64,000 bases of DNA from assembly GCA_030834695.1 (NCBI GenBank), contig JAUQXK010000097.1, forward strand, positions 24,823-88,822. The letters are read 5' to 3'. Below the pieces are notes generated by a model. It was given only the letters and a program-made list of their open reading frames with translations. It had not been told where the DNA came from and ran no database searches. The translations under genes and the position numbers were made by a program. Source of the DNA: Desulfobacterales bacterium (lineage in GTDB: Bacteria > Desulfobacterota > Desulfobacteria > Desulfobacterales > SpSt-501). Below, in pieces: positions 14,264 to 31,548 of this stretch (the stretch's first letter is position 1; every line of letters begins with the position of its first letter).

Positions 14264-14292
14264 GTCTTTTTCTCTTAAAAAGGAGGTGTCGT

Positions 14293-15201: not shown

Positions 15202-15263
15202 CGGATGGGAGCTGTTTCTCCGCTCAATGCAGCGACATCATTCATCGCCAAGGCTGGCTGGAG

Positions 15264-16106: not shown

Positions 16107-16264
16107 AAGCTTCCCCCACTGCTTGAGGAATCGGAGCCTCCCCGGCGGATGATCGCTCACCGGTCGCGGTCAAATATACGATCGGACCGGAGGGTGTCAA
16201 GAAACGCCTCTGCCGCCGGTCGTCGGGGGCAGGATTCCACAGCCCCTTTCGCAGGTCCTCCGGC

Positions 16265-16972
16265 TTACGAAGCCCGCCGCAGGGCGGAAACGGCTGTTCG
16301 TCGGTCCGTTTTCAGCCGGCCGTCGCTCAGCCGCATGACGCGGCCGGCATAGCCGGAACATTCGGCGCTGTGGGTGACCATGATCACCGTCATGCCGGAA
16401 GCGTTCAGGCGCTGGAACATCCGCATGATCTCACGGCTGTTTCCGGAATCCAGGTTTCCCGTGGGTTCGTCGGCCAGCAGCACCGGCGGCTCGTTCACGA
16501 TCGCCCGCGCCACCGCCACGCGCTCCTTTTCGCCGCCGGAGATCTCTCCGGGAAGCCGGCCGGCTTTTCCGCCCAGGCCGACCTCGGCCAGGGCTTCCTG
16601 CGCGCGGCGGCGCTTTTCCGGGCTGCCCTGCCGGCTCACGGCCAGCGGCAGCATGACGTTTTCGATCACCGACAAATAGGGAATCAGATGGAAGCTCTGG
16701 AATACGAACCCAAGATATTCGCGCCGGAAATCGGCCAGTCGGTCCGGATTCAGCGCGTACACGTCGATGCCGTCCACGTGCAGCCGGCCCGTGGTCGGTG
16801 CGTTCATCGCCCCAAGCATCCCCAGCAGGGTCGATTTACCGGCGCCGGACTCGCCCATGATCGCGACGAACTCGCCCGGAGCGATCCGGAAATTCAGACC
16901 GGAAACGGCATGCACCGCCGCCGCTCCGGCTCCGAAGGACTTGCCCAATTGGTCTGCTACGATGTAGCTCAT
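16265..16972 (-). CDS. ABC transporter ATP-binding protein (MacB/LolD-type)
   Basis: ORF 16265..17125 trimmed to ATG 16972 (MSYIVADQLGKSFG). Walker A GESGAGKST, signature SGGEKERV, Walker B VLLADEPT. Confidence 0.9.
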   Translation of the reverse strand: MSYIVADQLGKSFGAGAAAVHAVSGLNFRIAPGEFVAIMGESGAGKSTLLGMLGAMNAPTTGRLHVDGIDVYALNPDRLADFRREYLGFVFQSFHLIPYLSVIENVMLPLAVSRQGSPEKRRRAQEALAEVGLGGKAGRLPGEISGGEKERVAVARAIVNEPPVLLADEPTGNLDSGNSREIMRMFQRLNASGMTVIMVTHSAECSGYAGRVMRLSDGRLKTDRRTAVSALRRAS

Positions 16973-16997
16973 GCGTCTTTCCTTTCCAAGCAGGGCG

Positions 16998-18155: not shown

Positions 18156-18158
18156 GGT

Positions 18159-18710
18159 TCAGGCCTTTCTGGAAAAGTCAAAGTAGGTTTTGCCTTCCAG
18201 GACGTCGCTCACCCGGATCAGCAGCATCCCGTTTTCCATGCGGCGCTCCAACGGCGCCGGATTGCAGCCGCCCTTGACCTCGTTGACTTTGGTCGAGTGG
18301 AAGCGCTGGCCGCAGTTCCGACAGACCATGAAATCGCCGTCCTGGGCATAGCCCTTGCCCGCCGGCCAGCAGACGTCGCAGGCATCGAACGCCGCCCGCA
18401 GGACCCCGTCGGCACTCTTCACCACGAAGTAACGGATCGTGATGCCGCCGAGTTTGTGATCGAAGTAGTGCGCCTGGCCGTCGTTGAAGGTGGCCGCCGG
18501 CATGGACACGACATCACCGGAGACCCGGGCGGCAGTCGCTGGGTTGAGGGGGTTTGACGAGGTGTTCGCATTGAAATACCAAAACGCTCCGCCGGCCAGC
18601 AGAACCAGAATGGCAAGGCCGGCAATCAGCGGCTTGCGGTCGGGGCGGGGGGTACCGAGAACAGCGGCTTTCTTGGCCGCCAGCTTGTTGTTGGCAGGTT
18701 TCTGCAACAT
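18159..18710 (-). CDS. DUF2318-type membrane-anchored Cys-rich metal-binding protein
   Basis: ORF 18159..18803 trimmed to ATG 18710. One TM, then CDVCWPAGKGY...CRNCGQRF...GGCNP, which I recognise as the DUF2318 pattern. Confidence 0.7.
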   Translation of the reverse strand: MLQKPANNKLAAKKAAVLGTPRPDRKPLIAGLAILVLLAGGAFWYFNANTSSNPLNPATAARVSGDVVSMPAATFNDGQAHYFDHKLGGITIRYFVVKSADGVLRAAFDACDVCWPAGKGYAQDGDFMVCRNCGQRFHSTKVNEVKGGCNPAPLERRMENGMLLIRVSDVLEGKTYFDFSRKA

Positions 18711-18845
18711 GGTTATGCTCCTTAGCGATATTCGAATGAGTGGTCGGACACGGGCAGCCGGTTTGCTGGCCGGGTGGCCATCAGCAGCCGCCGAAGGCAG
18801 CATCCCGATTCGGAACGGGAAAAAGCAAGTTTTTGGACGAGGGGG

Positions 18846-19247
18846 TCAGATCAACAGGGTTTGAAGCCGCAAGTGAAGCGGGGGGCCCGGCGGGCGCGAA
18901 TCCATAGAACAGATCGACGGTGTACCGGACGGCCGCTCGATCGGATTATCGAAAGCCACTGCGCCGACCGCAGCGGTCATCCCGGTGACGCTGCCAGCCC
19001 CGGACGGCAAGGCCGGGCTGGTTTTAACGAACCGGCAACCCGACATGTTGTCCGCAGAATCACCCGCCGCCTGGGTGCAGCATGATCGGCCGGGCACCAT
19101 ATCGGTTGGACGGGAGACTGGATTGGCCTTGTGCCGACAACAGGGCATGCTGCAGTTCTCCGAGCCGGCACAGGCAGGACCCAGAGCGGCGGCAAGGATA
19201 AACAGGGCCAGCAGGATATGAAGCGATTTGGCAACCGCTGATTTCAT
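18846..19247 (-). CDS. secreted Cys-rich hypothetical protein
   Basis: 133 aa. Signal peptide MKSAVAKSLHILLALFILAAALGPACAG followed by CSMPCCRHK...SCC...C motifs. No family recognised. Confidence 0.5.
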   Translation of the reverse strand: MKSAVAKSLHILLALFILAAALGPACAGSENCSMPCCRHKANPVSRPTDMVPGRSCCTQAAGDSADNMSGCRFVKTSPALPSGAGSVTGMTAAVGAVAFDNPIERPSGTPSICSMDSRPPGPPLHLRLQTLLI

Positions 19248-19320
19248 AGTTTATAACTATAGATGCTTCGGCGAGCGCATGTCAACACAAAAAATCAACC
19301 GGCATAAGGCGCCAACAGGC

Positions 19321-20007
19321 CTATAAACTCTTTCCCGATTGAGCCAGGTCCTTCAGGCCTTGCGCGTCAAGCAAGGCGATTTTCCGGCCTTCGACTTGAA
19401 TGAGCTGCTGGGAAGACAGCTTGGCGAAAATGCGCGAGAGGGTTTCGGGGATCGTGCCGAGGAGGCTGGCCAATTGGCCCTTGGATATGCTCAACGTGAC
19501 CTGATCGAAACAACCCTGTTCATCGGCCAGGTAAAGCAGATAGGTGGCCAGGCGCGCCGGAATCTCCTTGAGCGACAGGTTCTCGATTTGAATCGTGAAC
19601 TGCCGCAGCTTGAGGGATAGATCGGCCAGCAGCTTGAGGGACAACGCCGGGTTTTTTTCGAGCAAGGCGACGAAGGCCGAGCGGGGGAAAAACAGCACGC
19701 GCGCGTCATGAAGGGCTTCCGCATTCGCCGGGAAGTGCTCGCCGGCAAAAACGGGGACCTCCCCGAAGGTCTGCCCGACGGTGAAGATATGCAGGATGTG
19801 CTCCTTGCCGTCGGGGGAGACTTTGAAGATCTTTACGGTTCCCCTAAGAATGACGTAAAAGCCGCTGCCTTCGTCACCCTCGGAGAAAATCAACTCACCT
19901 CGGCCAAAGCTTTTTTCCAGGGCGATGTCCTGGAACTGGTCAAGCTGCGCCCGGCTCATGCCGCTGAAGAGCGGAATCCGCGCGATGACGTCGGCCGCTT
20001 TTTCCAT
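19321..20007 (-). CDS. hcpR: CRP/FNR-family transcriptional regulator, HcpR-like by context
   Basis: 228 aa. cNMP-binding-like beta-roll (GELIFSEGDEGSGFYVILRGTVKIF) plus a C-terminal HTH (SKGQLASLLGTIPETLSRIFAKL). It is divergent from hcp and shares an FNR-type box with it. Confidence 0.75.
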   Translation of the reverse strand: MEKAADVIARIPLFSGMSRAQLDQFQDIALEKSFGRGELIFSEGDEGSGFYVILRGTVKIFKVSPDGKEHILHIFTVGQTFGEVPVFAGEHFPANAEALHDARVLFFPRSAFVALLEKNPALSLKLLADLSLKLRQFTIQIENLSLKEIPARLATYLLYLADEQGCFDQVTLSISKGQLASLLGTIPETLSRIFAKLSSQQLIQVEGRKIALLDAQGLKDLAQSGKSL

Positions 20008-20216
20008 GCCGTCTCTTTTGGCAGCATTTGAAATTCAAGTCAAGGTATTCGGGCGGAGGCGAATCAACGCCGGAGCACCGGGCGTCCGCGGCGGGGCAGG
20101 CGGCGGATGGACAATGGCGCGATCCGGCCTTATTTTAGGACCTTAAAAAACCAGCCAGGTCGGCATTGGAGCGCGACACCTGCCGGGCGCTCCGCCCGAA
20201 CAAAAAGATAGCCTTT

Positions 20217-20230
20217 TTGATCTAGGTCAA
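20217..20230. promoter_or_regulatory. FNR/CRP-type box TTGATCTAGGTCAA upstream of hcp
   Basis: Palindromic half-sites TTGA...TCAA. The -10-like TAAGAT at 20253-20258 places the box centre near -41.5. It lies 110 bp upstream of hcp ATG. An identical 14-mer is at 22136. Confidence 0.6.
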
Positions 20231-20333
20231 GGCGCACACCTCCGGACGCGAATAAGATCCCGTCCATGTTCAACCCAACGAACCCGACTTCACCGAACAC
20301 GGAAACCGCATCATCAACGAAAGGAGCTGCATC

Positions 20334-21965
20334 ATGTTTTGTTATCAGTGCGAACAGACGTCCAAAGGCGAAGGCTGCACCAAAATCGGCGTTTGCGGCA
20401 AGACCGCCGAGGTCGCGGCCCTGCAGGATCTTCTCATCTATGGTTTGAAGGGGCTTTCCCTGGTGGCCGTCGAGGCCCGCAAACAGAAGCTCGACCTGGC
20501 CGATGTGAACCGCTTCACCCTGCAGGCCACTTTTTCAACGCTGACCAATGTCGATTTCGATCCCGCGCGTTTCGTGGAGCTGATCGGCCGCTGCACGGCG
20601 CTGCGCGAAGACCTGAAAAAGAAAGTGAAGCAAGCCGGGGGCCATGCCGATTTCAGTCAAGAGGCAGCCACATTCGCTCCGGCGGCATCGGTGGAGGCCC
20701 TGGTCGCCCAAGCCGAAAAAACCGGCGGCGTCAAGGCGCCGGCGGCGGATGCCGACGCCCAAGCCCTGCGGGAACTTCTGATCTATGGGCTCAAGGGCAT
20801 CGCGGCGTATGCCGACCACGCCTGGATCTTAGGGAAGAAGGACGACAGCGTCTACGCGTTCATCCAGGAAGCCTTCGCCGCCACCCTGAACCCGGCCCTG
20901 GGCGTGAACGACTACCTCGGTCTGGTGCTCAAGTGCGGCGAAGTCAATCTGAAGGCCATGGAGCTCCTGGATGCCGGCAACACCGGAACCTACGGCCACC
21001 CGGTACCGACCAAGGTTCCGCTCGGTCACAAGAGGGGCAAGGCCATCCTGGTGTCCGGCCACGATCTCAAAGACCTCGATGAAATTCTCAAGCAGAGCGC
21101 CGGCAAGGGGATCAATGTTTACACTCACGGCGAGATGCTGCCCTGTCACGGCTATCCGGAGCTGAAGCAGAAATACCCGCATTTCTTCGGCCACTACGGC
21201 ACGGCCTGGCAGAACCAGGCCAAGGAATTCGCCAAGTTCCCGGGCGCCATCGTCATGACCACCAACTGCATCCAGAAGCCGACCGACACGTACCGGGACA
21301 ACATTTTCACCGCCGGTCTGGTGGGTTGGCCCGGAGTGCAGCACATCGCCGGCGAGAACTTCAAGCCCGCCATCGACAAGGCCCTGGCCCTGCCCGGCTT
21401 CAGTGAAGATGAGGCCGGCAAGGAGGTCATGGTGGGTTTTGCCCGCAACACCGTCATGAGCGTGGCCGGGAAGGTGATCGAGTTGGTCAAGGCCGGCAAG
21501 ATCAAGCACTTCTTCCTGGTGGGCGGCTGCGACGGCGCCAAGCCGGGCCGCAGCTACTACACCGAGTTCGTCGAAAAAGTGCCCCAGGACTGCGTGGTGT
21601 TGACGCTGGCCTGCGGGAAATTCCGCTTCTTCGACCAGGACCTGGGCGCGATCGACGGCATCCCGCGCCTGCTCGATGTGGGCCAGTGCAACGATGCCTA
21701 CTCAGCTATTCAGATCGCCGTCGCGCTCGCCAATGCATTTAACTGCGGGGTCAATGATCTGCCGCTGTCGATGATCCTTTCCTGGTACGAACAGAAGGCG
21801 GTGGCGATCCTGCTGACGCTGCTGCACCTCGGCATCAAGAACATTCGGCTCGGCCCGAGCCTCCCGGCCTTCGTGAGCCCGAATGTGCTCAACGTCCTCG
21901 TGGAGAAGTTCAACATTGCTCCGATCAAAACCCCGGACGAGGACCTCAAGGCGATTCTGAAGTAG
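20334..21965 (+). CDS. hcp: hybrid cluster protein / hydroxylamine reductase
   Basis: 543 aa. N-terminal MFCYQCEQTSKGEGCTKIGVCGK cysteine cluster and Hcp-type sequence throughout. Confidence 0.95.
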   Translation: MFCYQCEQTSKGEGCTKIGVCGKTAEVAALQDLLIYGLKGLSLVAVEARKQKLDLADVNRFTLQATFSTLTNVDFDPARFVELIGRCTALREDLKKKVKQAGGHADFSQEAATFAPAASVEALVAQAEKTGGVKAPAADADAQALRELLIYGLKGIAAYADHAWILGKKDDSVYAFIQEAFAATLNPALGVNDYLGLVLKCGEVNLKAMELLDAGNTGTYGHPVPTKVPLGHKRGKAILVSGHDLKDLDEILKQSAGKGINVYTHGEMLPCHGYPELKQKYPHFFGHYGTAWQNQAKEFAKFPGAIVMTTNCIQKPTDTYRDNIFTAGLVGWPGVQHIAGENFKPAIDKALALPGFSEDEAGKEVMVGFARNTVMSVAGKVIELVKAGKIKHFFLVGGCDGAKPGRSYYTEFVEKVPQDCVVLTLACGKFRFFDQDLGAIDGIPRLLDVGQCNDAYSAIQIAVALANAFNCGVNDLPLSMILSWYEQKAVAILLTLLHLGIKNIRLGPSLPAFVSPNVLNVLVEKFNIAPIKTPDEDLKAILK

Positions 21966-21988
21966 CATCTTCCGTGCGGGGGAGACTC

Positions 21989-22015
21989 CCGGGGCTCCCC
22001 GTCGGGGAGCCCCGG
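21989..22015 (+). terminator. GC-rich hairpin after hcp
   Basis: Perfect 12-bp stem CCGGGGCTCCCC / GGGGAGCCCCGG with a 3-nt loop, 24 nt after the hcp stop. The T-tract is only short (CTCGTTTCGG), so intrinsic termination is plausible but not certain. Confidence 0.5.
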
Positions 22016-22135
22016 CTCGTTTCGGGAGCGAAAGGGATGATGACTTCGGCAGGCGCGCAACTTATGTTGAGGTCCGCCGCGGCGATGCGTGATGTGGACG
22101 AACGAGACATAGGTAATTGCCGGAGCGCTCACCTC

Positions 22136-22149
22136 TTGATCTAGGTCAA
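22136..22149. promoter_or_regulatory. second identical FNR/CRP-type box TTGATCTAGGTCAA
   Basis: Identical to 20217-20230. The -10-like TAGAAT at 22173-22178 places the centre near -42.5. It lies 76 bp upstream of ATG 22219. Confidence 0.6.
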
Positions 22150-22218
22150 AGACACGTTGAGTAGGGCTGCGATAGAATCGGCGTCAATGAGTTCAACCTG
22201 CCTCAAGGAGCTGTAGCC

Positions 22219-22896
22219 ATGCGATGCCCTGGCCAAGACATGCAATACTGGAAACCGGGCGCCATCTTCGAGTCCAATTGTCCGCAATGCGGAAATCCCG
22301 TGGAGTTTTTTAAGGACGACACGGCACGCAAATGCGGCCGGTGCGGCCATCGTTTCGTCAACCCGCAGATGGACTTCGGTTGCGCCGCCTATTGCCCCTA
22401 CGCCGAGCAGTGCCTCGGTACGATGCCGGAGGGGCTTGCCGCCCAAAAGGAAAACCTGCTGAAGGACCGCGTCGCCGTTGAGATGAAGCGCTACTTCCGG
22501 AACGACTTCAAGCGCATCGGCCGTGCCGGCCGGGTGGCCCGGTATGCGGAGCGCATCGGCAAGGCCGAAACGGGCAACCTGGCGGTCATCCTGACGGCGG
22601 CCTACCTGCTGGACATCGACGGCCCGGCCGCCGCGCGCGATATCCTCACCCGACTCGGCGCCCGCGAGGACCTGATCGCCGAGGTCTGTGACATCATCAT
22701 CCATCACCGGTCGTCGCAGACCGGCGACGCCGTCAATCTCCGGGCCGTGTATGACGCCGATGCGCTGGAGTTCCTGGAAGCGGAACACAAACAACATCCC
22801 ATCGATGCCGACGAACTGGCTGCGCGCATCGAACGTTCCTTTTTGACCGCGTCCGGCCGTCAGGCGGCACGGGAAACTCTCATCACTTCGAGGTGA
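22219..22896 (+). CDS. zinc-ribbon + degenerate HD-like domain protein (unknown function)
   Basis: 225 aa. The N-terminus CPG...CPQCG...KCGRCG is homologous to the 26110 ORF. The C-terminus resembles an HD phosphohydrolase scaffold, but reads AAYLLDID where AALLHDIG is expected. Confidence 0.7.
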   Translation: MRCPGQDMQYWKPGAIFESNCPQCGNPVEFFKDDTARKCGRCGHRFVNPQMDFGCAAYCPYAEQCLGTMPEGLAAQKENLLKDRVAVEMKRYFRNDFKRIGRAGRVARYAERIGKAETGNLAVILTAAYLLDIDGPAAARDILTRLGAREDLIAEVCDIIIHHRSSQTGDAVNLRAVYDADALEFLEAEHKQHPIDADELAARIERSFLTASGRQAARETLITSR

Positions 22897-22900
22897 TACC

Positions 22901-23656
22901 ATGAAAGTCATCCGCAAAATCATCAAGATCGACGAAGACCTGTGTAACGGATGCGGCAACTGCGTGCCGGCCTGCGCCGAAGGGGCTCTGGAGATCATCG
23001 ACGGCAAGGCGCGCGTGATCGCCGACATCTACTGCGACGGGCTGGGGGCCTGCCTGGGGGAATGCCCGACCGGCGCCCTGACCATCTCGGAACGGCAGGC
23101 CGACGAGTTTGACGAGCATGCCGTGGAAACGATGCTGGCGGCGAAAGAGAAGACCCCGGAGACTTCCAAGGTGCTGCCCATGGCCGCCGGCGGCTGCCCG
23201 TCGGCCCGCATGGTACAAAGCTTTGGGTCCGCTCCCGCGGCCGCCCCTGTTGCCGGAGAACCCGTTGAATCGGCGCTCAGCCATTGGCCCGTCCAGATCA
23301 TGCTGGTGCCGCCGACGGCGCCGTTTCTGAAGGGGGCGGACCTCCTGGTGCTTGCCGATTGTGTTCCCGTGGCCTTCCCGACCCTCCACCGCGATTTTCT
23401 GCAGGGCAAACGCGTGATGCTCGGCTGTCCCAAGTTCGACAATGCCGAGGCGTATATCGACAAGTTTACTCAAATCTGCAAACAGTCCGGCATCCGCAGC
23501 ATTACTTCGGTGGTCATGGAGGTGCCCTGCTGCGCCGCCCTGCCGGTGATCGTCCAAAAAGGCATGCAGCGTTCCGGCGTCAAGGTGCCGCTGGAGGAAG
23601 TGGTCATCAGCGTGCGCGGCAAAATTATGCAACGCCGCCAGATAGCGACGGCTTGA
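22901..23656 (+). CDS. 4Fe-4S ferredoxin-domain protein (FrdX-like partner of hcp)
   Basis: 251 aa. N-terminal CNGCGNCVPACAEGAL and CDGLGACLGECPTGAL dicluster motifs, plus a Cys-containing C-terminal domain. Confidence 0.75.
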   Translation: MKVIRKIIKIDEDLCNGCGNCVPACAEGALEIIDGKARVIADIYCDGLGACLGECPTGALTISERQADEFDEHAVETMLAAKEKTPETSKVLPMAAGGCPSARMVQSFGSAPAAAPVAGEPVESALSHWPVQIMLVPPTAPFLKGADLLVLADCVPVAFPTLHRDFLQGKRVMLGCPKFDNAEAYIDKFTQICKQSGIRSITSVVMEVPCCAALPVIVQKGMQRSGVKVPLEEVVISVRGKIMQRRQIATA

Positions 23657-23944
23657 TCCTGTCTTGTGAGACACGCCTGTTCCACAAATCAACCCGAGAC
23701 TAGATTGCATTGTCATTTTCGGTGTGATATTCAGAGATTGTTTGACGATATCCCTGATCACCGCCGGCATGGATCGATGCGGTTTTGTATCGGGTTCGCG
23801 TGGCGGGAATGGATCACGGTCTTGCCGCCCGGGCCTCACCGTGAGACCAAACATCTATAATTCAAGCTGTTACAGGCACCCGCCGCTCCTGTTCTCCTCT
23901 GGCATGAAATTTGATTAAGCCACCATGGCTCAAAGCACTTCGCT

Positions 23945-24187
23945 ATGCCGGAAGGAAACGCCGTGAGGCCCTGCAATCTTCATATCGTCAAAACGTTGAA
24001 GTTGACGGAAGAAATGATTCATTTGGCCGACCGCGGCGAGGCGGACCGTGAAGACAACGGATGCGGGATTCTCTACGGAGTCTTGCGGGATTCGGCTTAC
24101 AAGCTCAAGAAATTGGCTGAAGCGGAAAAGCAAAACCACATCCGGAAGGGCTGGTGGGCCCGAAAGGACGACGAAGCCGATCCGTAA
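23945..24187 (+). CDS. small conserved-looking hypothetical protein (80 aa)
   Basis: ATG 23945. MPEGNAVRPCNLHIVKTLKLTEEMIHLADRGEADREDNGCGILYGVLRDSAYKLKKLAE... No family named. It lies directly upstream of rbr. Confidence 0.5.
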   Translation: MPEGNAVRPCNLHIVKTLKLTEEMIHLADRGEADREDNGCGILYGVLRDSAYKLKKLAEAEKQNHIRKGWWARKDDEADP

Positions 24188-24248
24188 TGACACCCCCCAC
24201 GCAATAATGACACGAAGCAAATGATAAAAAAAAGGAGGACTGCAATCG

Positions 24249-24824
24249 ATGTCGAGGATTAAGGGTACGCGCACGGAGAAAAATCTGTTGGCGGCTTTCG
24301 CCGGAGAATCCCAGGCGCGCAACCGCTACACCTATTTCGCCGGCCAGGCCCGCAAAGACGGTCTGGTCCAGATCGCCGATATTTTCATCGAAACCGCCGA
24401 CCAGGAGAAAGAACACGCCAAACGGTTTTTCAAATTTCTGGAAGGCGGCGAAATCGAAATCGCCGGTATTTTCCCGGCCGGAGTCGTCGGAACGACGCTG
24501 GACAATCTGAAAACCGCTGCGGCCGGCGAACGCCACGAACATATCTCCGTGTATCCGGAGTTTGCCAAGGTCGCCGAGGAGGACGGTCTGAAGGATGCGG
24601 CCGCGGCCTTCCGGGCCATCGCGGTGGCCGAGAAGCAGCACGAGAAGCGCTATCGCGACCTGGCGGCCAACATCGAAGCCGGCCGCGTGTTCAAGCGCGA
24701 TGCGAACGTGACCTGGCGCTGCCGCAACTGCGGCTATCTGCACGAGGGCGTGAGCGCTCCCGAGCTTTGCCCGGCCTGTCTGCATCCCCAGGCCCATTTC
24801 GAACTGCTGGGCGAAAACTGGTAA
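24249..24824 (+). CDS. rbr: rubrerythrin
   Basis: 191 aa. Diiron four-helix motifs (ESQARNRY, EKEHAKRF) and a C-terminal rubredoxin-like WRCRNCGY...CPAC. Confidence 0.95.
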   Translation: MSRIKGTRTEKNLLAAFAGESQARNRYTYFAGQARKDGLVQIADIFIETADQEKEHAKRFFKFLEGGEIEIAGIFPAGVVGTTLDNLKTAAAGERHEHISVYPEFAKVAEEDGLKDAAAAFRAIAVAEKQHEKRYRDLAANIEAGRVFKRDANVTWRCRNCGYLHEGVSAPELCPACLHPQAHFELLGENW

Positions 24825-24863
24825 TCCATCACTCAACCCTTTTGCATGGAAAGGAGACCGATC

Positions 24864-25238
24864 ATGGCCGAACAGCTTCAAGTCTACAAATGCGATACCT
24901 GCGGAAACATCGTTGAGGTGCTGCACGGCGGTGGAGGCGAACTGGTATGCTGCGGACAGCCGATGAAACTCTTCAAAGAGAACACCGTGGACGCCGCCAA
25001 GGAAAAGCATGTGCCGGTCGTTGAAAAAACCGCCGACGGATTCAAGGTCAAAGTGGGAAGCGTCGCTCACCCGATGGAGGAGAAGCACTGGATCGAATGG
25101 GTCGAGCTGGTCGCCGACGGCAAGGTTTTTCGCCAGTTTTTGAAACCCGGCCAAGCGCCGGAGGCGACCTTCTGCATCAAGGCCGATAAGGTTGCCGCCC
25201 GCGAGTACTGCAACCTTCACGGCTTGTGGAAAGCGTAG
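24864..25238 (+). CDS. dfx: desulfoferrodoxin (2Fe superoxide reductase)
   Basis: ORF 24846..25238 trimmed to ATG 24864 (AAGGAG upstream). N-terminal desulforedoxin CDTCGN...VCCG and the C-terminal SOR centre (KHVPV..., [18 protein letters not shown]). Confidence 0.95.
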
Positions 25239-25400
25239 GCGCCCCGTCTTTACGGACGCCTGCATCGACTTCAAACCCCTCTCCCGATGGCCCGACGCGG
25301 ATGCCTCGCGGCGGCAACCGGGGGATTCCGGGAATCCCGAAATCGAAGCGGAGGTTCAGACCTCGAAATGATTGGCGGGACCCGGCAGGGAGAAAATGCC

Positions 25401-25568
25401 ATGCCAAGCTGGAAATGTTCTAAGTGCGGCTATACGTTCGAGGCGGACGCGTATCCCAACCAGTGCCCGTCCTGTAAGGAAAAATGTGAATTCCTGGACA
25501 CCACCTGCTATACGCCGGACTGCACCGCCACAGGGATAGATCCGCGCATTGCGAAACCCAAGCCCTGA
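25401..25568 (+). CDS. stand-alone rubredoxin-like zinc-ribbon protein (55 aa)
   Basis: ATG 25401 inside ORF 25287..25568. WKCSKCGYTFEADAYPNQCPSCKEKCEF closely mirrors the C-terminal Rd-like domain of the rubrerythrin above (WRCRNCGYLHEGVSAPELCPAC). Confidence 0.7.
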   Translation: MPSWKCSKCGYTFEADAYPNQCPSCKEKCEFLDTTCYTPDCTATGIDPRIAKPKP

Positions 25569-25643
25569 CCCGCTGCCCGGGTTGTCGGCCAATCAGTTTG
25601 GATGCGGTCCTCGTCACTTGGGCTGCAAAGGAGTGCCGTCGTT

Positions 25644-26081
25644 ATGGGAAAAGTGCTGATTGTATTCGCCAGCCGGACCGGTGAGACCCAAACCATGGCC
25701 GACCTGATCGGCGAGGGTGTTCGCATGGCCGGTCATCAGGCTGAAGTGGTCAATGTAAAGAACGTCAGAAGCGAGGCCGATCTGGCTGCATATGACGGCT
25801 ATGTGTTCGGATCCGCCACTTATCACGGCGACATGTTGCAGGCGATGAAGACCTTTCTGTTCATCGCTGAAAAGGCCCCGCTGGAGGGTAAAATCGGAGG
25901 GGCGTTCGGCTCTTTCGGTTGGAGCGGAGAGGCCAACGACCGAATTTTCCAAACCATGAAAAACATCTTCAAGATGAACATGGTTGCCGACTGCCTCCGG
26001 TTGAAGACGAGCAACCTCGGCGGCGGTGTCCAGATGGCCCAGGATTACGGCCGCCAATTGGCAAAAAAGCTAACCGAGTAG
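25644..26081 (+). CDS. flavodoxin (short-chain)
   Basis: ORF 25602..26081 trimmed to ATG 25644 (AAAGGAG upstream). MGKVLIVFASRTGETQ FMN-phosphate loop and FGSFGWSGEA. Confidence 0.9.
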   Translation: MGKVLIVFASRTGETQTMADLIGEGVRMAGHQAEVVNVKNVRSEADLAAYDGYVFGSATYHGDMLQAMKTFLFIAEKAPLEGKIGGAFGSFGWSGEANDRIFQTMKNIFKMNMVADCLRLKTSNLGGGVQMAQDYGRQLAKKLTE

Positions 26082-26109
26082 AAAATTTCTTTCAGAAAGA
26101 GAGGACGTC

Positions 26110-26325
26110 ATGGCCCCCGATACGACCACGCCTCAGCATTGCCCCGGCTACGCTAACTTTAAGTCGCTGAAGTCCTTCACGTGCAACTGTCCGAAATGCG
26201 GCACGGAAAAAGAGATTTTTTCCGACGAATTCGATCGACCCCACAAGTGCGGCAAATGTGGAGAGCCGATCGATTTCAGGCAGTGCCAGCTGGCGGGCGA
26301 GGGTAAGAGCCTGTCGCCGCGTTGA
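26110..26325 (+). CDS. stand-alone zinc-ribbon protein (71 aa), paralogous to the N-terminus of 22219
   Basis: CPGYANFKSLKSFTCNCPKCGTEKEIFSDEFDRPHKCGKCGEPI aligns with CPGQDMQYWKPGAIFESNCPQCGNPVEFFKDDTARKCGRCGHRF. GAGAGGA RBS upstream. Confidence 0.6.
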   Translation: MAPDTTTPQHCPGYANFKSLKSFTCNCPKCGTEKEIFSDEFDRPHKCGKCGEPIDFRQCQLAGEGKSLSPR

Positions 26326-26402
26326 GCCCTTGCAGCGCATCGCAGGGGTTCTCCCCGTGGGTTGCGGCCTGCTGAGACTCCCCCGCACGGATCCAGAGAC
26401 AA

Positions 26403-26771
26403 ATGACCATACGAATCATCACCCGCAAAAAGCTGATCGCGCTGCTTATAGCCATGCTAACCGCTGGGGGCTGGGCCTGGGCCTCGGGCGCGCCTCCGAA
26501 CCGGGGCGCGGCCGAGATCATCTTGGAAGGCGGAACGAGCGGCAAGGTCGCTTTCCCCCACCAGCGGCACCAGGAAAAGCTGACGGACTGCAACATCTGC
26601 CACGCGGCATTTCCGCAAAAAACCGGCATCATCGAAGAACTCAAGACCCAGGGCAAACTGGCCAAGAAGCAGATCATGAACGAGCAGTGCACCAAATGTC
26701 ACAAGGAAAAGAAACAGGCCGGCGAGAAGGCCGGTCCCACGACCTGTACGACCTGCCACGTCAAACCATGA
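26403..26771 (+). CDS. triheme c7-type (PpcA-like) periplasmic cytochrome c
   Basis: 122 aa. Signal peptide and three CxxCH motifs (CNICH, CTKCH, CTTCH). The FPHQRHQ...C layout and small Lys-rich mature part resemble Geobacter/Desulfuromonas c7. Confidence 0.8.
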   Translation: MTIRIITRKKLIALLIAMLTAGGWAWASGAPPNRGAAEIILEGGTSGKVAFPHQRHQEKLTDCNICHAAFPQKTGIIEELKTQGKLAKKQIMNEQCTKCHKEKKQAGEKAGPTTCTTCHVKP

Positions 26772-26784
26772 TCGGATCCAGACC

Positions 26785-27759
26785 ATGCTGATCCTCGGTT
26801 TACAGGGAAGTCCGCGCAGGAAGGGCAACACGAATTTTCTTCTTTCCACCTTCCTGCAGGCGGCGGAGCGGCGGGGCGCGGTAACGCAGACCATCCAGGT
26901 CGCGGAGCGCAACATTGTGCCCTGCAAGGAATATGTCGTCTGCGAGAAAAAGGGCACTTGCCCCATCAAAGACGACATGGCCAGCGAAATCTACGGGCTG
27001 CTGCGGCAGGCGGAAATCGTCGTGCTGGCCTCGCCCATCTTTTTCTACAACATGACCTCCCAGCTCAAGGCCCTGGTGGACCGCTGCCAGACTTTCTGGG
27101 CGCGCAAGTACCGGCTCAAACTCAGCGACCCGCTTAAGCATACGCGCCGAGGGATTCTGCTCGGCGTCGGAGCAACCCGTGGCAAGAACCTCTTCGAGGG
27201 GTTGCAGTTGACCGCCAAGTATTTTTTCGATGCCATCGATGCCCGCTATGAAGGCAGTCTGGTTTACCGGGGGATCGAGAGTGCGAAGGATCTGGTCAAC
27301 CACCCAACGGTTCGGGAGGAAGTGGAACAGTCGGTGGAGGCTCTGATGGCTCCGTATGCTGCGAGGAAAAAGGTGCTGTTCCTGTGCCGCCAGAACGCCG
27401 GCCGCAGCCAGATGGCCGGCGCCTTCGCCCAGCACCTTGCCGGTGACAAACTGGATGTGGCGACCGGCGGCAGCCGGCCGGCGGAAAAACTGAATCCCGA
27501 TATGGTGTCCGCCATGGCCGAGAAAATGATCGATCTGGCTTTTCGGACCCCTCAGGGGATCGAAGCGGCCCTGGCCAACGGTCAACCAGATGCGATTGTC
27601 ACCATGGGGTGCGGCGAAGAATGCCCGCTGGTTCCCGGAGCCCTGCACCAGGAATGGGACGTGCCGGATCCTTCCGGCCAACCGATAGGGGCCATGCGCC
27701 AGATCCGGGATGAGATCGAATCCCGCGTTAAAGAGTTGATAACCACCCTGTGCGGATGA
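26785..27759 (+). CDS. fusion: NADPH-dependent FMN reductase / iron-sulfur-flavoprotein-like domain + LMW-PTP/ArsC-type arsenate-reductase-like domain
   Basis: The N-terminus MLILGLQGSPRRKGNTNFL...ASPIFFYNMTSQLKALVDR is flavodoxin-like, with C-x5-C-x5-C. The C-terminus KKVLFLCRQNAGRSQMA carries the CX5R(S) P-loop plus GCGEECP and DPSG. Confidence 0.8.
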   Translation: MLILGLQGSPRRKGNTNFLLSTFLQAAERRGAVTQTIQVAERNIVPCKEYVVCEKKGTCPIKDDMASEIYGLLRQAEIVVLASPIFFYNMTSQLKALVDRCQTFWARKYRLKLSDPLKHTRRGILLGVGATRGKNLFEGLQLTAKYFFDAIDARYEGSLVYRGIESAKDLVNHPTVREEVEQSVEALMAPYAARKKVLFLCRQNAGRSQMAGAFAQHLAGDKLDVATGGSRPAEKLNPDMVSAMAEKMIDLAFRTPQGIEAALANGQPDAIVTMGCGEECPLVPGALHQEWDVPDPSGQPIGAMRQIRDEIESRVKELITTLCG

Positions 27760-27788
27760 TATGAACCTGTAACGTTGAGGGAGCGCCC

Positions 27789-27992
27789 GTGTCAAAACCC
27801 GAAGACATGTATCAGTGCCAGACCGTCAACTGCGGCTACATCTACGACCCCGATCGCGGGGACCGCAAGGGCAAAATTCCCAAAGGGGTCCAATTCAGGG
27901 ATCTTCCCGACCACTGGGTCTGCCCGATATGCGGCGCCGGCAAAAAGATGTTCAAACCCCTGGCCGGGCCGGGCTCGGCCCATGAGGCTTAG
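27789..27992 (+). CDS. rubredoxin with atypical C-x4-C first knuckle
   Basis: GTG start. [18 protein letters not shown]...[12 protein letters not shown]. The first pair is CQTVNC (C-x4-C) instead of CxxC. Confidence 0.85.
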
Positions 27993-28105
27993 GGGCAGAC
28001 GCCGGCCGCTGACAGAACGTCGACCATTTAGCCGAGCTTCGAGCGAAATCGGAATAGAAACTGAGAAGCAACACTCTGATTCCAAGATTCCAAAGGAGGA
28101 GAACG

Positions 28106-28267
28106 ATGGCGAAATATGTTTGTCAGGTGTGTGGTTACGTTTATGACCCGGCGCAGGGCGACCCGGACAACGGTGTTGCACCCGGAACCCCCTTCGAAAA
28201 ACTTCCGGACAGCTGGGAATGCCCGGTGTGCGGCGCTTCCAAGGCGGATTTTGCCAAAGAAGCCTGA
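28106..28267 (+). CDS. rub: rubredoxin (canonical, 53 aa; below the ORF-track size cut-off)
   Basis: Hand-translated: [53 protein letters not shown], stop TGA 28265-28267, AAGGAGGAG RBS at 28092-28100. Confidence 0.9.
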
Positions 28268-28294
28268 AGCCGTATTCTGGATCCGGCGACGGTT

Positions 28295-28344
28295 GATGCC
28301 CTTTGCTTTCAGCCTTGGAGCTGAAGAAAAGGGCATCGCCTTTT
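28295..28344 (+). terminator. rho-independent-type terminator after rubredoxin
   Basis: GATGCCCTTTGCTTTCAGC...GCTGAAGAAAAGGGCATC imperfect long stem followed by GCCTTTT. Confidence 0.55.
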
Positions 28345-28453
28345 GGCTCGCCCCGCGCAGGCAACCGCATTCGGCCGGCCGCGAGCGGACAGCCGTTGCC
28401 GACTGGTCTTTGATGATTAATTTCAACCGGAGTGAACCATCCGGATACACGCA

Positions 28454-29722
28454 ATGAGGAAAAAAATGGACCCTGTTCAAATTGCCCCCGGAGTATACAG
28501 CGTGGGTGTCAGAGATTGGAATATCCGGGACTTTCACGGCTATTCCACCGATTTGGGAAGCACTTACAACGCGTTTCTGATCGTGGATGAAAAAATCGCG
28601 CTGATCGACTCGGTCAAAAAGCAATTCGCCGACCAACTGATCGACAACATCGCCCGCATCGTCGATCCGCGCAAAATCGACGTGGTGATCAGCAATCACA
28701 CCGAGCTCGACCATTCCGGGAGCCTCGCCCGCATCATGCACCGGGTCGGTGAAGACAAACCGTTGTACTGCTCGAAAATGGGGGCGAAAAACCTGGCCCG
28801 CCATTTCCCTCAGCAGTGGAATTACCGCGCCGTCGGCTCGGGCGAAGAGCTGAAACTCGGCAGACGCACCCTGACTTTTCTGGAAACCCGCATGATCCAC
28901 TGGCCGGACAGCATGTTCTCCTACCTCCGGGAGGACGGCATCCTCTTTTCGAGCGACGGCTTCGGCCAGCACTACGCCGGCCCGGAGACCTTCGACGACG
29001 AGATCGGGGACCGGATCATGGTCCACGCCAAGAAATACTTCGCCAATATCCTGCTGCTCTATGCGACCCATATCGAAAAGCTGATCCGGCAGGTAGCCGA
29101 CATGAAGCTGAATCTGCGCATGATCTGCCCGGACCACGGGGTCATCTGGCGCCGCGATCCCGGCAGGATCGTCCAGGCCTATCTCGATTGGTGCCGCCAG
29201 GAGCCGGAGCGAAAGGCGGCTGTGATCTACGACACCATGTGGCACAGCACCGAGAAGATGGCCGAGGCCATCAACGCGGGGATCATGGCGGCGGGCGTGC
29301 CGTCCAAGCCGATGCATCTGCGGTCCTGGCATCGCAGCGAAGTGATGACCGAGGTTTTTGACGCTCGCGCCGTGGTCGTGGGTTCTCCCACCCTGAACAA
29401 CGGCTTGTTTCCCACGATCGCTGATTTTCTTTGCTACATGAAGGGCCTCAAACCGAAGAACAAGATCGGAGCGGCGTTCGGCTCTTACGGATGGAGCGGG
29501 GAGGCCGTCAAACTGATCGAGGGCGAGTTGACCGACATGAAGATCGAACTCGCCCAGCCGGGACTGCGAACTCAGTTCGTTCCCGAAAAAGCGATACTGG
29601 ACACCTGCCATGAATTCGGATTCAAGATCGGCCAGGCCGTAGCGGCAGCTCCCGGTGCCGGCGCGCGGGCGGCTGTCGGATCGCCCGGGCACAGCCGGAC
29701 GGCGCTGAATGAGCTGAAATGA
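28454..29722 (+). CDS. roo: flavodiiron protein (rubredoxin:oxygen oxidoreductase / NO reductase type)
   Basis: 422 aa (alternative start ATG 28466). Metallo-beta-lactamase-like diiron motif ISNHTELDHSGS and a C-terminal flavodoxin domain (GSPTLNNG, FGSYGWSGEA). Confidence 0.95.
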   Translation: MRKKMDPVQIAPGVYSVGVRDWNIRDFHGYSTDLGSTYNAFLIVDEKIALIDSVKKQFADQLIDNIARIVDPRKIDVVISNHTELDHSGSLARIMHRVGEDKPLYCSKMGAKNLARHFPQQWNYRAVGSGEELKLGRRTLTFLETRMIHWPDSMFSYLREDGILFSSDGFGQHYAGPETFDDEIGDRIMVHAKKYFANILLLYATHIEKLIRQVADMKLNLRMICPDHGVIWRRDPGRIVQAYLDWCRQEPERKAAVIYDTMWHSTEKMAEAINAGIMAAGVPSKPMHLRSWHRSEVMTEVFDARAVVVGSPTLNNGLFPTIADFLCYMKGLKPKNKIGAAFGSYGWSGEAVKLIEGELTDMKIELAQPGLRTQFVPEKAILDTCHEFGFKIGQAVAAAPGAGARAAVGSPGHSRTALNELK

Positions 29723-29913
29723 TGAAACGCCCCATTGTCGAACTGAGCGATTGCATACGCTGCGAGGTGTGCGTCGCGGCCTGTCCGGCGGCCTTTCGCA
29801 TGAACGATGCCGGATTCGTCGAAGTCATCGACCTGAGCGCCTACCCCGACGATGAGGTGAACGAGGCCATCCGAGACTGCCCGGCGGATTGCATCCGCTG
29901 GGAGGAAGAATAG
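29719..29913 (+). CDS. small single-cluster ferredoxin
   Basis: 64 aa. CIRCEVCVAACP...CPADCI. The ATGA overlaps the FDP stop. Confidence 0.85.
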   Translation: MMKRPIVELSDCIRCEVCVAACPAAFRMNDAGFVEVIDLSAYPDDEVNEAIRDCPADCIRWEEE

Positions 29914-29928
29914 TTTTCCAATCATCAC

Positions 29929-30669
29929 ATGGTAGAGGCGCGACAGCGAGCCGCATCGATGAAACCGGAACGTCCTGTCAGCGGGCGCGAGCTCAAACGG
30001 ATGCTGGCTGGCCTGCTGGTAGCCGATACCTTTCCGTCGTCCTTGGATGCCATTGACGGCCTGCCGGGCCGGCGGGTCGTCAATCCCTTGTTCGCGTTTT
30101 TCTGTGACACGGATGCGTTGCGGCGCTGGCGGGCCGTGACCGCGATGGGCCGGGTGGTATCCCGCCTGGCCGATGAGAACCTGGAATCCGCGCGGGTGGT
30201 CATGCGGCGCTTCATGTGGAACCTGAACGAGGAATCCGGCGGAATCGGCTGGGGCTGCCCGGAAGCCATGGGGGAATGCATGGCTCGCAGCGACCGGCTG
30301 GCCGACGAATACGGCTGCATCCTGTCGTCCTACCTGCACCCGGAGCGCAATTTCATCGAGCACCCGGCCCTGCAGGAAGGCGTGTTGTGGGGCATCGGAC
30401 GATTGGCGCAGTCACGGCCCGCATCGATGGCCGGCTGCGCGGAGTTTCTGGCGCCCTTTCTGGGATCGCCCGAGGCGGCGCTGCGAGGGCTGGCCGCCTG
30501 GGCCGGCGGACCTCTGGCCGATGCCCGCCTGACGCCGCTTCTGGGAAAACTGACGGGCGACCGCGCATCCTTCCGACTCTACCGCGGGGAACGCCTGGAG
30601 GTATGTTTCGTGGGCGAACTGGCCCTGCAGGCGCTGCGGTGGGCACCCATGAACTCTCCGGAGAAGTGA
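29929..30669 (+). CDS. helical-repeat (HEAT-like) hypothetical protein; I recall similar proteins named DVU0298 family
   Basis: 246 aa, Leu/Ala/Arg-rich helical repeats with a conserved-looking core WNLNEESGGIGWGCPEAMGE. The family name comes from memory only. Confidence 0.6.
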   Translation: MVEARQRAASMKPERPVSGRELKRMLAGLLVADTFPSSLDAIDGLPGRRVVNPLFAFFCDTDALRRWRAVTAMGRVVSRLADENLESARVVMRRFMWNLNEESGGIGWGCPEAMGECMARSDRLADEYGCILSSYLHPERNFIEHPALQEGVLWGIGRLAQSRPASMAGCAEFLAPFLGSPEAALRGLAAWAGGPLADARLTPLLGKLTGDRASFRLYRGERLEVCFVGELALQALRWAPMNSPEK

Positions 30670-30676
30670 ACCTGAT

Positions 30677-31486
30677 ATGAAATGGACCCCTGAAGCCGAA
30701 GCCGCTCTGAAACAGGTCCCTTTTTTCGTTCGCAAGCGGGTGCGGGCGCGCGTGGAGAACGAGGCGCACGATGCCGGGCGGGACAGCATCACCCTGGCCG
30801 ACGTCAAGGCCACGCAGGCACGCTACCTGTCCGGCATGCAATCCGAAATCAAGGGCTACCAGCTCGACACCTGCTTCGGCCCCAGCGGCTGCCCCAACCG
30901 GGCGGTGGTCAGCGAGTCGCTGCTGGCACGCGTCGAAACCGTGCTCAAAGCCGCCGATCTGCTGAGCTTTCTCAAATCCCGCGTGCCGGGCGATCTCAAG
31001 TTCCACCACGAATTCCGGGCCACCCTGGCCGACTGCCCGAACGCCTGCTCGCAGCCGCAAATCAAGGACATCGGCATCATCGGCGCCGCGGTTCCGGAAA
31101 CCACGAACGACGCCTGTTCCCAATGCGGCGCCTGCATCGAATCCTGCTCGGAGCAGGCGATCGCAACCGCCGATGGAGGCGGCCCGCCCCGCATCGACAC
31201 GCAGCGCTGCCTGAACTGCGGCCAGTGCGTCCGGGCCTGCCCCACCGGAACGATCGCCGAAGGCTGGAGCGGGTTCCGGGTTCAGCTCGGCGGGCGGCTC
31301 GGCCGCCATCCCCGGCTGGCGCGTGAACTGCCGGGCATCTTCAACGAAGATCAGACGATCGAGATCCTGCAGGCCTGTCTGGAGCTTTACAAGACGCGCA
31401 GCCGACACGGCGAACGTTTCGCCCATCTTTTCCAGGACAGCGACTTCGAGGATTTTTCGCACCGGTTTTGCGGCACCGATATTTGA
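30677..31486 (+). CDS. Fe-S protein: PCP-reductase-like N-terminal domain + sulfite/nitrite-reductase-like ferredoxin domain with 2x[4Fe-4S] motifs
   Basis: The WTPEAEAALKQVPFFVRKRVRARVENEA N-terminal module, then CSQCGACIESC and CLNCGQCVRACP. Confidence 0.7.
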   Translation: MKWTPEAEAALKQVPFFVRKRVRARVENEAHDAGRDSITLADVKATQARYLSGMQSEIKGYQLDTCFGPSGCPNRAVVSESLLARVETVLKAADLLSFLKSRVPGDLKFHHEFRATLADCPNACSQPQIKDIGIIGAAVPETTNDACSQCGACIESCSEQAIATADGGGPPRIDTQRCLNCGQCVRACPTGTIAEGWSGFRVQLGGRLGRHPRLARELPGIFNEDQTIEILQACLELYKTRSRHGERFAHLFQDSDFEDFSHRFCGTDI

Positions 31487-31548
31487 CACACCGATAGTCG
31501 GCGTTAGCATTTGAGCGTCACCTTCAACGACGAAAGGGGCTTTCGACC

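Follow-up and report, generated by a model that had tools for sequence, protein, structure and literature searches.

A 12-kb run of stress-defence genes in a 64,000-nt window of a Desulfobacterales genome (contig JAUQXK010000097.1, positions 24,823 to 88,822, assembly GCA_030834695.1) is, judging by its regulatory motifs, made up of at least three separately controlled units. The run comprises 17 consecutive plus-strand genes, from hcp (20334) to the end of an iron–sulfur (Fe-S) protein gene at 31486, as seen in the open reading frame (ORF) listing and in Pfam and NCBIfam scans. A first-pass annotation of the same sequence had described this co-directional run beside a divergent Crp/Fnr-family regulator, which the ORF listing and scans bear out; its count of 11 known defence or redox genes plus six others is correct, and Pfam confirmed all 11 assignments. 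It had also read the whole run as one unit behind an HcpR-like regulator, and here the evidence points elsewhere: boxes for this regulator occur only at hcp and at the 22219–22901 gene pair, a separate sigma-54-type promoter precedes the genes that follow, and the oxygen-related part stands alone in five genomes. We favour a composite stress-defence region, belonging to a Desulfatibacillum-like member of the order, in which separately controlled modules lie head to tail (probability about 0.68).

The comparisons rest on loci found through one small gene of the block, ORF 26110 (ORFs are named by start coordinate). Its 71-aa family was aligned, one genome per species was scanned and the best 80 loci were compared by running the window proteins against them with tblastn; individual loci are labelled with the prefix L. 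Loci with at least four block genes were counted as block-bearing, and presence was counted per assessable loci. What was observed directly is which genes are present, their order and conservation, and which regulatory motifs occur and where.

The left end of the run holds the following features.

19321–20007, minus strand: HcpR-like Crp/Fnr-family regulator, divergent from hcp (cNMP_binding and HTH_Crp_2)
20217–20230, no strand assigned: HcpR/FNR-type box 1, TTGATCTAGGTCAA, ahead of hcp, about 30 nt upstream of a −10-like TAAGAT
20334–21965, plus strand: hybrid cluster protein Hcp (Prismane, 572 bits, full length)
21989–22015, plus strand: 12-bp G+C hairpin just past the hcp stop, terminator-like with a weak U tract (region −41 kcal/mol, z score −2.5)
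22136–22149, no strand assigned: HcpR/FNR-type box 2, a 14-mer identical to box 1, ahead of 22219, about 30 nt upstream of TAGAAT
22219–22896, plus strand: Cys-rich zinc-ribbon and HD-domain protein (ORF 22219), 4-nt gap to the next gene
22901–23656, plus strand: FrdX-like polyferredoxin (Fer4 families; 2×[4Fe-4S] N terminus and Cys-rich C-terminal domain)

As given by Rodionov et al. 2005 (PMC1274295), an HcpR1 regulator lacks the FNR Cys cluster, has Ser or Pro at CRP position 180 and lies near hcp or frdX; in deltaproteobacteria other than Desulfovibrio the residue is Pro and the motif is wyTTGACnnnnGTCAArw. By that description the window regulator is an HcpR1: it belongs to the Crp/Fnr family, has no FNR Cys cluster at its N terminus, lies beside hcp and carries the recognition helix TIPETLSR, with Pro-Glu at CRP positions 180/181. 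The boxes at 20217 and 22136 each match the HcpR1 motif with one mismatch and are the only exact matches to the 14-mer within 64 kb. Matches to the Desulfovibrio-type HcpR motif TTGTGA-N6-TCACAA were no more frequent than expected by chance, and that motif was replaced by the FNR-like one. In relatives, a TTGAY-N4-RTCAA box lies upstream of hcp in 22 of 22 loci and an exact box lies upstream of the 22219 orthologue in 26 of 40; scans of the window and of upstream regions found no HcpR box ahead of 23945 or any later gene. On the position and distribution of these boxes, the regulator is predicted to control only hcp and the 22219–frdX pair. In 17 loci it lies directly divergent from 22219–frdX, with the box present and no hcp between them (including L014, L018, L021, L023, L024, L027, L028, L030, L036–L038, L040, L048, L051 and L053; gap 133–402 nt), so that hcp looks like an optional insertion at this locus. 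The PF27217 (AF_0155) family is recorded on orthologues of the FrdX-like polyferredoxin, the Cys pattern of which is conserved.

To the right of frdX lie a sigma-54-type promoter and ten genes.

23723–23792, no strand assigned: candidate upstream activator sites TGATATTC (23725), CGATATCC (23746) and TGTATCG (23786), from motif enrichment
23900–23914, plus strand: sigma-54-type promoter TGGCAT-GAAAT-TTGA (−24 GG, −12 TTGA), from motif conservation
23963–24187, plus strand: 74-aa helical-hairpin protein (ORF 23945), no Pfam or NCBIfam match
24249–24824, plus strand: rubrerythrin (Rubrerythrin and RUBY_RBDX)
24864–25238, plus strand: desulfoferrodoxin, a 2Fe superoxide reductase (Desulfoferrod_N and Desulfoferrodox)
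25401–25568, plus strand: 55-aa rubredoxin-like protein with seven conserved Cys (ORF 25401; RUBY_RBDX)
25602–26081, plus strand: flavodoxin, start possibly at 25644 (Flavodoxin_1 and Flavodoxin_5)
26110–26325, plus strand: 71-aa zinc-ribbon protein (ORF 26110), no Pfam or NCBIfam match
26403–26771, plus strand: triheme c7-type cytochrome with a signal peptide (Cytochrome_C7 and Cytochrom_CIII; three CxxCH, hydrophobic N terminus)
26785–27759, plus strand: flavin mononucleotide (FMN) reductase, Isf-like with three conserved Cys, fused to an ArsC/low-molecular-weight (LMW) phosphatase domain with CX5RS (FMN_red and LMWPc)
27789–27992, plus strand: rubredoxin with a C-X4-C first knuckle, CQTVNCG, of the Rdl/Rd-2 type (Rubredoxin, 72 bits)
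28106–28267, plus strand: canonical rubredoxin (Rubredoxin, 90.6 bits)

Alignment of 46 distinct regions upstream of the 23945 family revealed a TGGCAY-N5-TTGA element in all 46, with the GG, the TTG and the 5-nt spacer invariant, 58–166 nt before the GTG start. In the window, the copy at 23900–23914 is the sole match, no second −24/−12 match being found in the 64 kb, and 1.34 Mb of loci contain just 49 occurrences of the strict motif. All 13 assessable block-bearing loci without a 23945 homologue also lack the element. Ahead of the promoter, TG[AT]TAT[CT] occurs 50 times in the 46 regions (5.3 in shuffles), clustered 120–180 nt upstream, and TGATATYC-like repeats together with the TGTATCG motif are about tenfold enriched over shuffles. 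A perfect integration host factor (IHF) consensus at −40 is found only in the four closest relatives and for that reason gives weak support. Also in favour, Desulfobacteria have the most enhancer-binding proteins of any class (PMC12316311). Taken together, 23900–23914 is a strong candidate for a sigma-54 promoter driving the O2 part of the run.

Three block-bearing genomes that lack the 23945 gene carry something else at this position. Upstream of dfx in L009 (about 8600–8700), L050 and L061 lies a perfect 8-1-8 Fur/PerR-like palindrome, TTGAGAATGATTCTCAA, adjoining a sigma-70-like promoter, TTTACA-N17-AATATG; both sit where the sigma-54-type element, absent there, would otherwise be. This operator, standing in for the sigma-54-type element, suggests that the block is controlled by peroxide or oxygen and that lineages have swapped its regulation. 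In the window itself the palindrome had no match and no Fur-family domain was found among the 20 proteins scanned, and the block there is not classed as a PerR regulon.

These motifs bear directly on the possibility that all 17 genes form one co-regulated supercluster or operon under the divergent HcpR-like regulator, induced jointly by NO and O2. The genes are all co-directional, begin directly downstream of the regulator and are mostly separated by short gaps; HcpR regulons extended with ferredoxin- and cytochrome-like genes are described for deltaproteobacteria (PMC1274295), and read-through from upstream units is possible. We nevertheless consider a single operon very improbable, given that the HcpR boxes stop at 22136, a strong hairpin follows hcp, an invariant sigma-54-type promoter of its own precedes 23945, the HD–FrdX pair occurs beside the regulator without hcp in the 17 loci noted above, and the O2 block exists in L033, L042, L045, L059 and L083 without a detected upstream homologue of HcpR, Hcp, HD or FrdX on the locus.

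A further boundary may lie inside the O2 part, between the second rubredoxin and the flavodiiron gene.

28295–28347, plus strand: conserved RNA hairpin, base GATGCCCTTT/AAAGGGCATC, top variable with base pairing preserved, then a short U-rich tail (z score −4.4)
28454–29722, plus strand: class-A flavodiiron protein, an ROO-type O2/NO reductase (ODP and Flavodoxin_1)
29719–29913, plus strand: small [4Fe-4S] ferredoxin, overlapping the flavodiiron gene by 4 nt (Fer4_13 and Fer4_15)
29929–30669, plus strand: DVU0298-family HEAT-repeat protein (ORF 29929; NF045662 and HEAT_EZ)
30677–31486, plus strand: small sulfite/nitrite-reductase-like Fe-S protein (ORF 30677; PCP_red and NIR_SIR)

The hairpin core motif is present in 37 of 48 distinct regions upstream of the flavodiiron gene, and 38 distinct rubredoxin-to-flavodiiron spacers, the window's among them, yielded the full hairpin, which folded at −16 to −40 kcal/mol. 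Its lower stem, RATGCCCTTTT/AAAAGGGCATY, is conserved in sequence across species and its upper stem varies with compensating changes (for example, L035:6501–6559 and L043:6104–6160), a combination that is unusual for a plain terminator. In L030 the hairpin lies 14 nt from the flavodiiron gene, where read-through must occur and the structure is no complete terminator. An Rfam scan of 19–33 kb returned nothing credible, the hairpin included. We read the element as a putative attenuator or processing/stability element that sets off a flavodiiron–ferredoxin–29929–30677 sub-unit.

The favoured mechanism can be stated as two modules, with the activities, inducing signals, operon boundaries and roles of the accessory proteins being those we infer from sequence. 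In the nitrosative module, the HcpR-type regulator would bind the two FNR-like boxes in class-II positions and activate hcp, predicted to be monocistronic and ended by the strong hairpin, as well as a two-gene unit of the zinc-ribbon/HD protein and the FrdX-like polyferredoxin that presumably donates electrons to Hcp. In the oxidative module, the sigma-54-type promoter with its upstream repeats, presumably driven by an enhancer-binding protein encoded elsewhere, would yield a transcript of about ten genes (hairpin protein, rubrerythrin, Dfx, 25401, flavodoxin, 26110, c7 cytochrome, FMN-reductase/ArsC fusion and the two rubredoxins), which the conserved RNA hairpin would attenuate or process before the flavodiiron, ferredoxin, 29929 and 30677 sub-unit. 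Superoxide reductase (Dfx) makes H2O2 from superoxide, rubrerythrin reduces H2O2 to water, and flavodiiron proteins reduce O2 or NO. The electrons come most immediately from rubredoxins, and Hcp with FrdX handles NO or hydroxylamine. Flavodoxin, FMN reductase, ferredoxin and c7 cytochrome are plausible electron inputs. For the small Cys/His proteins, the likeliest roles are as additional electron carriers with metal centres or as partners in metal handling or repair; the 74-aa hairpin protein may be linked to rubrerythrin or else belong to the sigma-54 control circuit.

The arrangement is conserved well beyond close relatives. The 26110 family occurs in more than 556 species genomes, and the best 80 loci come nearly all from Desulfobacterales metagenome-assembled genomes (MAGs), the closest being an uncultured Desulfatibacillum (94%); the set includes a cultured organism, Desulfatitalea alkaliphila. 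The block was found in 61 of the 80 species-level loci and is colinear with the window in 60 of these 61, with order and strand kept at protein identities down to 47–60%; order identical in so many species is not a matter of chance. Among the oxidative genes, presence per assessable loci was 42/52 for 23945, 39/56 for rubrerythrin, 56/58 for Dfx, 57/59 for 25401, 59/61 for flavodoxin, 50/60 for the c7 cytochrome, 52/53 for the Isf–ArsC fusion, 19/52 for the C-X4-C rubredoxin and 51/52 for the canonical rubredoxin, followed by 45/51 for the flavodiiron protein, 42/44 for ferredoxin, 37/41 for 29929 and 24/38 for 30677. The corresponding figures are 16/42 for Hcp, 36/45 for 22219, 40/49 for FrdX and, on the flank, 23/36 for CopZ. 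Core block genes are found in 95–100% of assessable loci; on the flanks, the FtrD-like, CopZ and CopA genes reach 58–70% and CysQ 48%. In many related genomes the six extra ORFs all sit in synteny with detoxification genes, which supports their place in the locus as first proposed, and the gene content agrees with the earlier view that this is an unusually complete anaerobe set for defence against O2, reactive oxygen species (ROS) and NO at one locus.

Several findings weigh against the modular reading. The base after the −12 TTG is A in 43 of 46 upstream regions, where the sigma-54 consensus, quoted as yTGGCACGrnnnTTGCw in PMC12754779, has C. A search for enhancer-binding proteins with a GAFTGA motif found none in the window and, within 10 kb, none in 89 of 90 loci; the single locus with such a motif, L071, lacks the block. 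The A in the −12 element and the lack of a GAFTGA activator near the block leave the sigma-54 assignment strong, not proven. At the module boundaries, the terminator after frdX is weak and not significant in the window (z score −1.4), and the stretch from the RNA hairpin to the flavodiiron gene showed no conserved promoter. A broader role in metal or metalloid handling could be indicated by the ArsC domain and the adjoining copper genes. About 20 more distant genomes carry a 26110 homologue alone, in unrelated contexts. Finally, the loci were chosen by similarity to this single block gene and come nearly all from one order, so that the conservation figures favour relatives and owe part of their strength to common ancestry.

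The last two points bear on a reading in which the gene order is inherited within one clade without functional coupling, the small ORFs being passengers and guilt by association void. Besides the near-restriction of block loci to Desulfobacterales and the lone 26110 homologues, it can draw on the closest relatives, which keep even unrelated flanks syntenic: metagenomic contigs whose 22219 orthologues are as little as about 69% identical still show the whole arrangement, and at that distance RtcB, Usp and the ATP-binding cassette (ABC) transporter on the left, and CopZ, CysQ and CopA on the right, are also in place. Such passive inheritance is unlikely in light of how the flanks and the core differ further out, with flanks at roughly 50–70% and replaced in some loci (the right flank in L009/L010), and order and strand surviving in 60 of 61 loci at the low protein identities given above. 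The single promoter for many genes with short gaps (13–77 nt over most of the block, operon-like spacing) also speaks against it, as do the invariant Cys/His patterns of the small proteins, typical of redox metal sites, an in-frame 23945–rubrerythrin fusion in L045, and a Dfx–26110 pair occurring on its own in L088. The neighbourhoods of the lone 26110 homologues in distant genomes are heterogeneous and were informative only in L088 and Desulfobacula. In the former, a Thermodesulfobacteriota MAG (L088:9498–10177), the homologue directly follows desulfoferrodoxin; in Desulfobacula toluolica (L007:10001–11006) it lies upstream of a c3/c7-type cytochrome.

A different question is whether the sigma-54-driven block serves mainly metal, metalloid or redox homeostasis, or a cytoplasmic O2-reducing electron-transport chain, instead of ROS defence. 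The fusion of an ArsC/LMW-phosphatase domain to an FMN reductase, kept in nearly every assessable locus, would suit such a role, as would the periplasmic c7 cytochrome within an otherwise cytoplasmic set, the sulfite-reductase-like protein with its complete siroheme/[4Fe-4S]-type Cys motif, and the CopZ, CopA and FtrD-like/ABC genes that flank the block. We find this quite improbable: conservation is highest for the classical ROS/O2 enzymes and their donor rubredoxin, the copper genes have a promoter-like site of their own and are lost in many loci, the Fur/PerR-like operator that replaces the sigma-54 cassette in some genomes indicates peroxide control, and the Pfam and NCBIfam scans found no arsenite efflux gene in the block. 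On the fusion itself, ArsC models scored below their own cut-offs in the NCBIfam scan.

The modules favoured here are built from parts of known kinds: the dfx–rub–roo operon, rbr with rdl, and the HcpR regulon. As in the Desulfovibrio dfx(sor)–rub–roo operon, Dfx, rubredoxin and flavodiiron protein are co-directional in one locus, and they occur together in most block loci; a dfx–rub–roo-like arrangement has been described in another sulfate reducer (PMC6491731). As in the Desulfovibrio rbr/perR/rdl cluster, rubrerythrin is accompanied by a C-X4-C rubredoxin-like protein (27789), which we take to be of the Rdl type. The unit here differs from dfx–rub–roo in having 14 genes instead of three, the additions being flavodoxin, the FMN reductase/ArsC fusion, ferredoxin, c7 cytochrome and five conserved accessory proteins, and from the Desulfovibrio systems generally in that the PerR/sigma-70 promoter gives way to a sigma-54-type one and the locus has no Fur-family gene. 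The left module resembles the HcpR1 regulon of PMC1274295 in its divergent regulator and in the FNR-like TTGAC-N4-GTCAA-type box ahead of hcp and a frdX-like gene, but the frdX-like gene is here preceded by a zinc-ribbon/HD protein, of which the accessible part of that source makes no mention; in addition, many relatives lack hcp beside the regulator, and the HD metal ligands are lost in the window lineage.

Detoxification genes behind a −24/−12 promoter with upstream repeats are known from NorR/sigma-54 control of norVW (flavorubredoxin) in Escherichia coli and from PexR/sigma-54 control of ahpC/katB in Myxococcus xanthus (PMC12754779). In contrast to both, no activator gene lies beside the operon here, the −12 element reads TTGA, and the promoter always travels with the 74-aa hairpin protein as first gene. 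The upstream repeat is TGATATYC-like, compared with the palindrome CACCG-N6-CGGTG for PexR, which was described in 2025 as the first H2O2-sensing enhancer-binding protein (PMC12754779). The literature searched held no description of this cluster in Desulfobacterales or Desulfatibacillum, and we found there neither the unit of about 14 genes nor its apparent sigma-54 control, the promoter–hairpin-protein cassette, the internal RNA hairpin or the accessory proteins.

The six extra ORFs had been listed as of no known function. This stands for 23945 and 26110, which have no Pfam or NCBIfam match, and is too strong for 22219, 25401, 29929 and 30677, which match named families or domains.

The 23945 protein most likely starts at the GTG at 23963, giving 74 aa, because conservation in relatives begins at V/M-[KR]-P-C-N and a ribosome-binding site precedes it. 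Its family comprises 959 hits when clustered at 90% and 560 representatives when clustered at 50%, all short proteins, in which C4, C34, H59, Glu55 and a GWW motif are invariant and H7 is nearly so (at least 90% of sequences). The AlphaFold model is a two-helix hairpin of long helices (predicted local distance difference test (pLDDT) score 88), in which Cys4, His7, Glu55 and His59 appear to be grouped at the open end. We do not claim a specific fold, encapsulated-ferritin-like or other, since matches in the PDB were non-significant helical hairpins and half-ferritins. In a single MAG of an uncultured Desulfobacteraceae (L045:7753–8682), a 23945-family protein and rubrerythrin share one frame with a linker of about 30 residues; this single ORF may reflect a natural fusion or faulty assembly, and no fused form was found among the 150 best family representatives.

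The 71-aa protein of ORF 26110 has invariant TPQHCPG, C25, C27, C30, EIFSDEF, H45, C47, C50 and C59, with six invariant Cys and two invariant His in all. Its model (pLDDT 76) is a generic zinc ribbon, and fold matches to ribosomal and MCM zinc ribbons were non-significant. ORF 25401 is rubredoxin-like by RUBY_RBDX (34.9 bits, cut-off 26.5), with four knuckle Cys and three further conserved Cys; the NCBIfam RCKP-type model reached 32.4 bits, below its cut-off of 45.

On the nitrosative side, the 22219 family has 5,201 hits, many of them carrying PF01966. Its alignment shows eight invariant Cys at the N terminus, those of a zinc ribbon and four others, followed by the HD domain. In the window protein, RIGRAG and YLLDID replace RIGHAS and YLHDIG, with loss of the His and His-Asp metal ligands, and the HD domain has a deletion of about 19 residues that is shared with the closest relatives (compared with homologues P0050, P0093 and P0117). 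The H...HD...D ligand motif is accordingly missing, and the Pfam HD model misses the window protein and matches many of its homologues. Loss of the HD ligands alongside an invariant eight-Cys domain suggests that the Cys-rich domain carries the conserved function. A sequence search against the PDB with 22219 returned nothing useful.

The two genes at the right end encode the HEAT-repeat and sulfite-reductase-like proteins. ORF 29929 belongs to the DVU0298 family (NF045662, 235.9 bits against a cut-off of 75, model positions 5–212 of 213), a family without an assigned function. It has a conserved ESGGIGWGxPE motif and no conserved Cys, and its PDB matches were HEAT/alphaRep repeat proteins only, designed HEAT repeats. 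An exact-sequence look-up of the window protein found no record, and DVU0298 appeared in the literature only as an apparent locus-tag typo in a CO-dehydrogenase table. ORF 30677 (269 aa) consists of a PCP_red domain followed by NIR_SIR (59 bits) with CX5C...CX3C and an inserted 2×[4Fe-4S] ferredoxin; all Cys motifs, both ferredoxin motifs included, are conserved in 23 orthologues. Its best solved relative is the C-terminal half of the F420-dependent sulfite reductase Fsr (7npa, E = 4.6e-19), with which, as with small dissimilatory-sulfite-reductase-like proteins, it shares the Cys motif and inserted two-cluster ferredoxin. It differs from Fsr in having the N-terminal PCP_red domain, neither an N-terminal NIR_SIR_ferr domain nor an F420 module, and a constant pairing with the DVU0298-family HEAT protein downstream of the flavodiiron protein. 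Only the C-terminal half of Fsr aligns, and the siroheme site is putative.

A bolder proposal, which we regard as doubtful, would join these proteins to the promoter evidence. A portable cassette of the sigma-54-type promoter and the 74-aa Cys/His hairpin protein would have taken control of O2 defence from a sigma-70/PerR-type promoter in part of the Desulfobacterales, the hairpin protein acting as redox- or metal-sensing partner of the predicted enhancer-binding protein. Reductive O2/ROS detoxification would then gain new parts in the 7-Cys rubredoxin-like protein, the 71-aa zinc-ribbon protein and the HEAT/sulfite-reductase-like pair. An analogue for such a role of the hairpin protein is PspA, the product of the first gene of its own sigma-54 operon and a regulator of PspF.

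Oxygen tolerance of sulfate reducers, which is relevant to sediments, microbial mats, corrosion and gut ecology, is known mostly from Desulfovibrio, with the genes scattered in units of two or three, and peroxide-defence genes of anaerobes are typically under PerR control. The locus suggests that a single conserved unit of about 14 genes, apparently sigma-54-controlled, serves the Desulfobacterales, a large and environmentally dominant group; sigma-54 control of peroxide defence was shown only recently in any bacterium (PexR, 2025). Candidate new players are the two small metal-binding families without a Pfam or NCBIfam match, the 7-Cys rubredoxin-like protein, the pair of HEAT and mini-sulfite-reductase proteins and, for the nitrosative side, the Cys-rich HD protein always paired with FrdX under HcpR. 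Desulfatitalea alkaliphila is a cultured carrier of such candidates.

Within the block, the start of dfx is most likely 24864 (relatives' calls give 124 aa). The spacer from dfx to 25401 (25239–25400) measures 162 nt in the window, 10–13 nt in L001 and L002, and 140–177 nt in L004 and L005. To the right, the plus-strand run extends beyond 31486 into copZ–cysQ–copA, and copZ has its own sigma-70-like match at 31483–31510. To the left of the block, the ORF list shows ABC, FtsX-type and FtrD-like ORFs together with a small Cys-rich secreted ORF (18846–19247). By analogy with L001 (1–6904), the window at about 12000–19250 is expected to carry two units, archease–RtcB–Usp and ABC/FtsX/FtrD-like; RtcB operons are a classical case of sigma-54 dependence.

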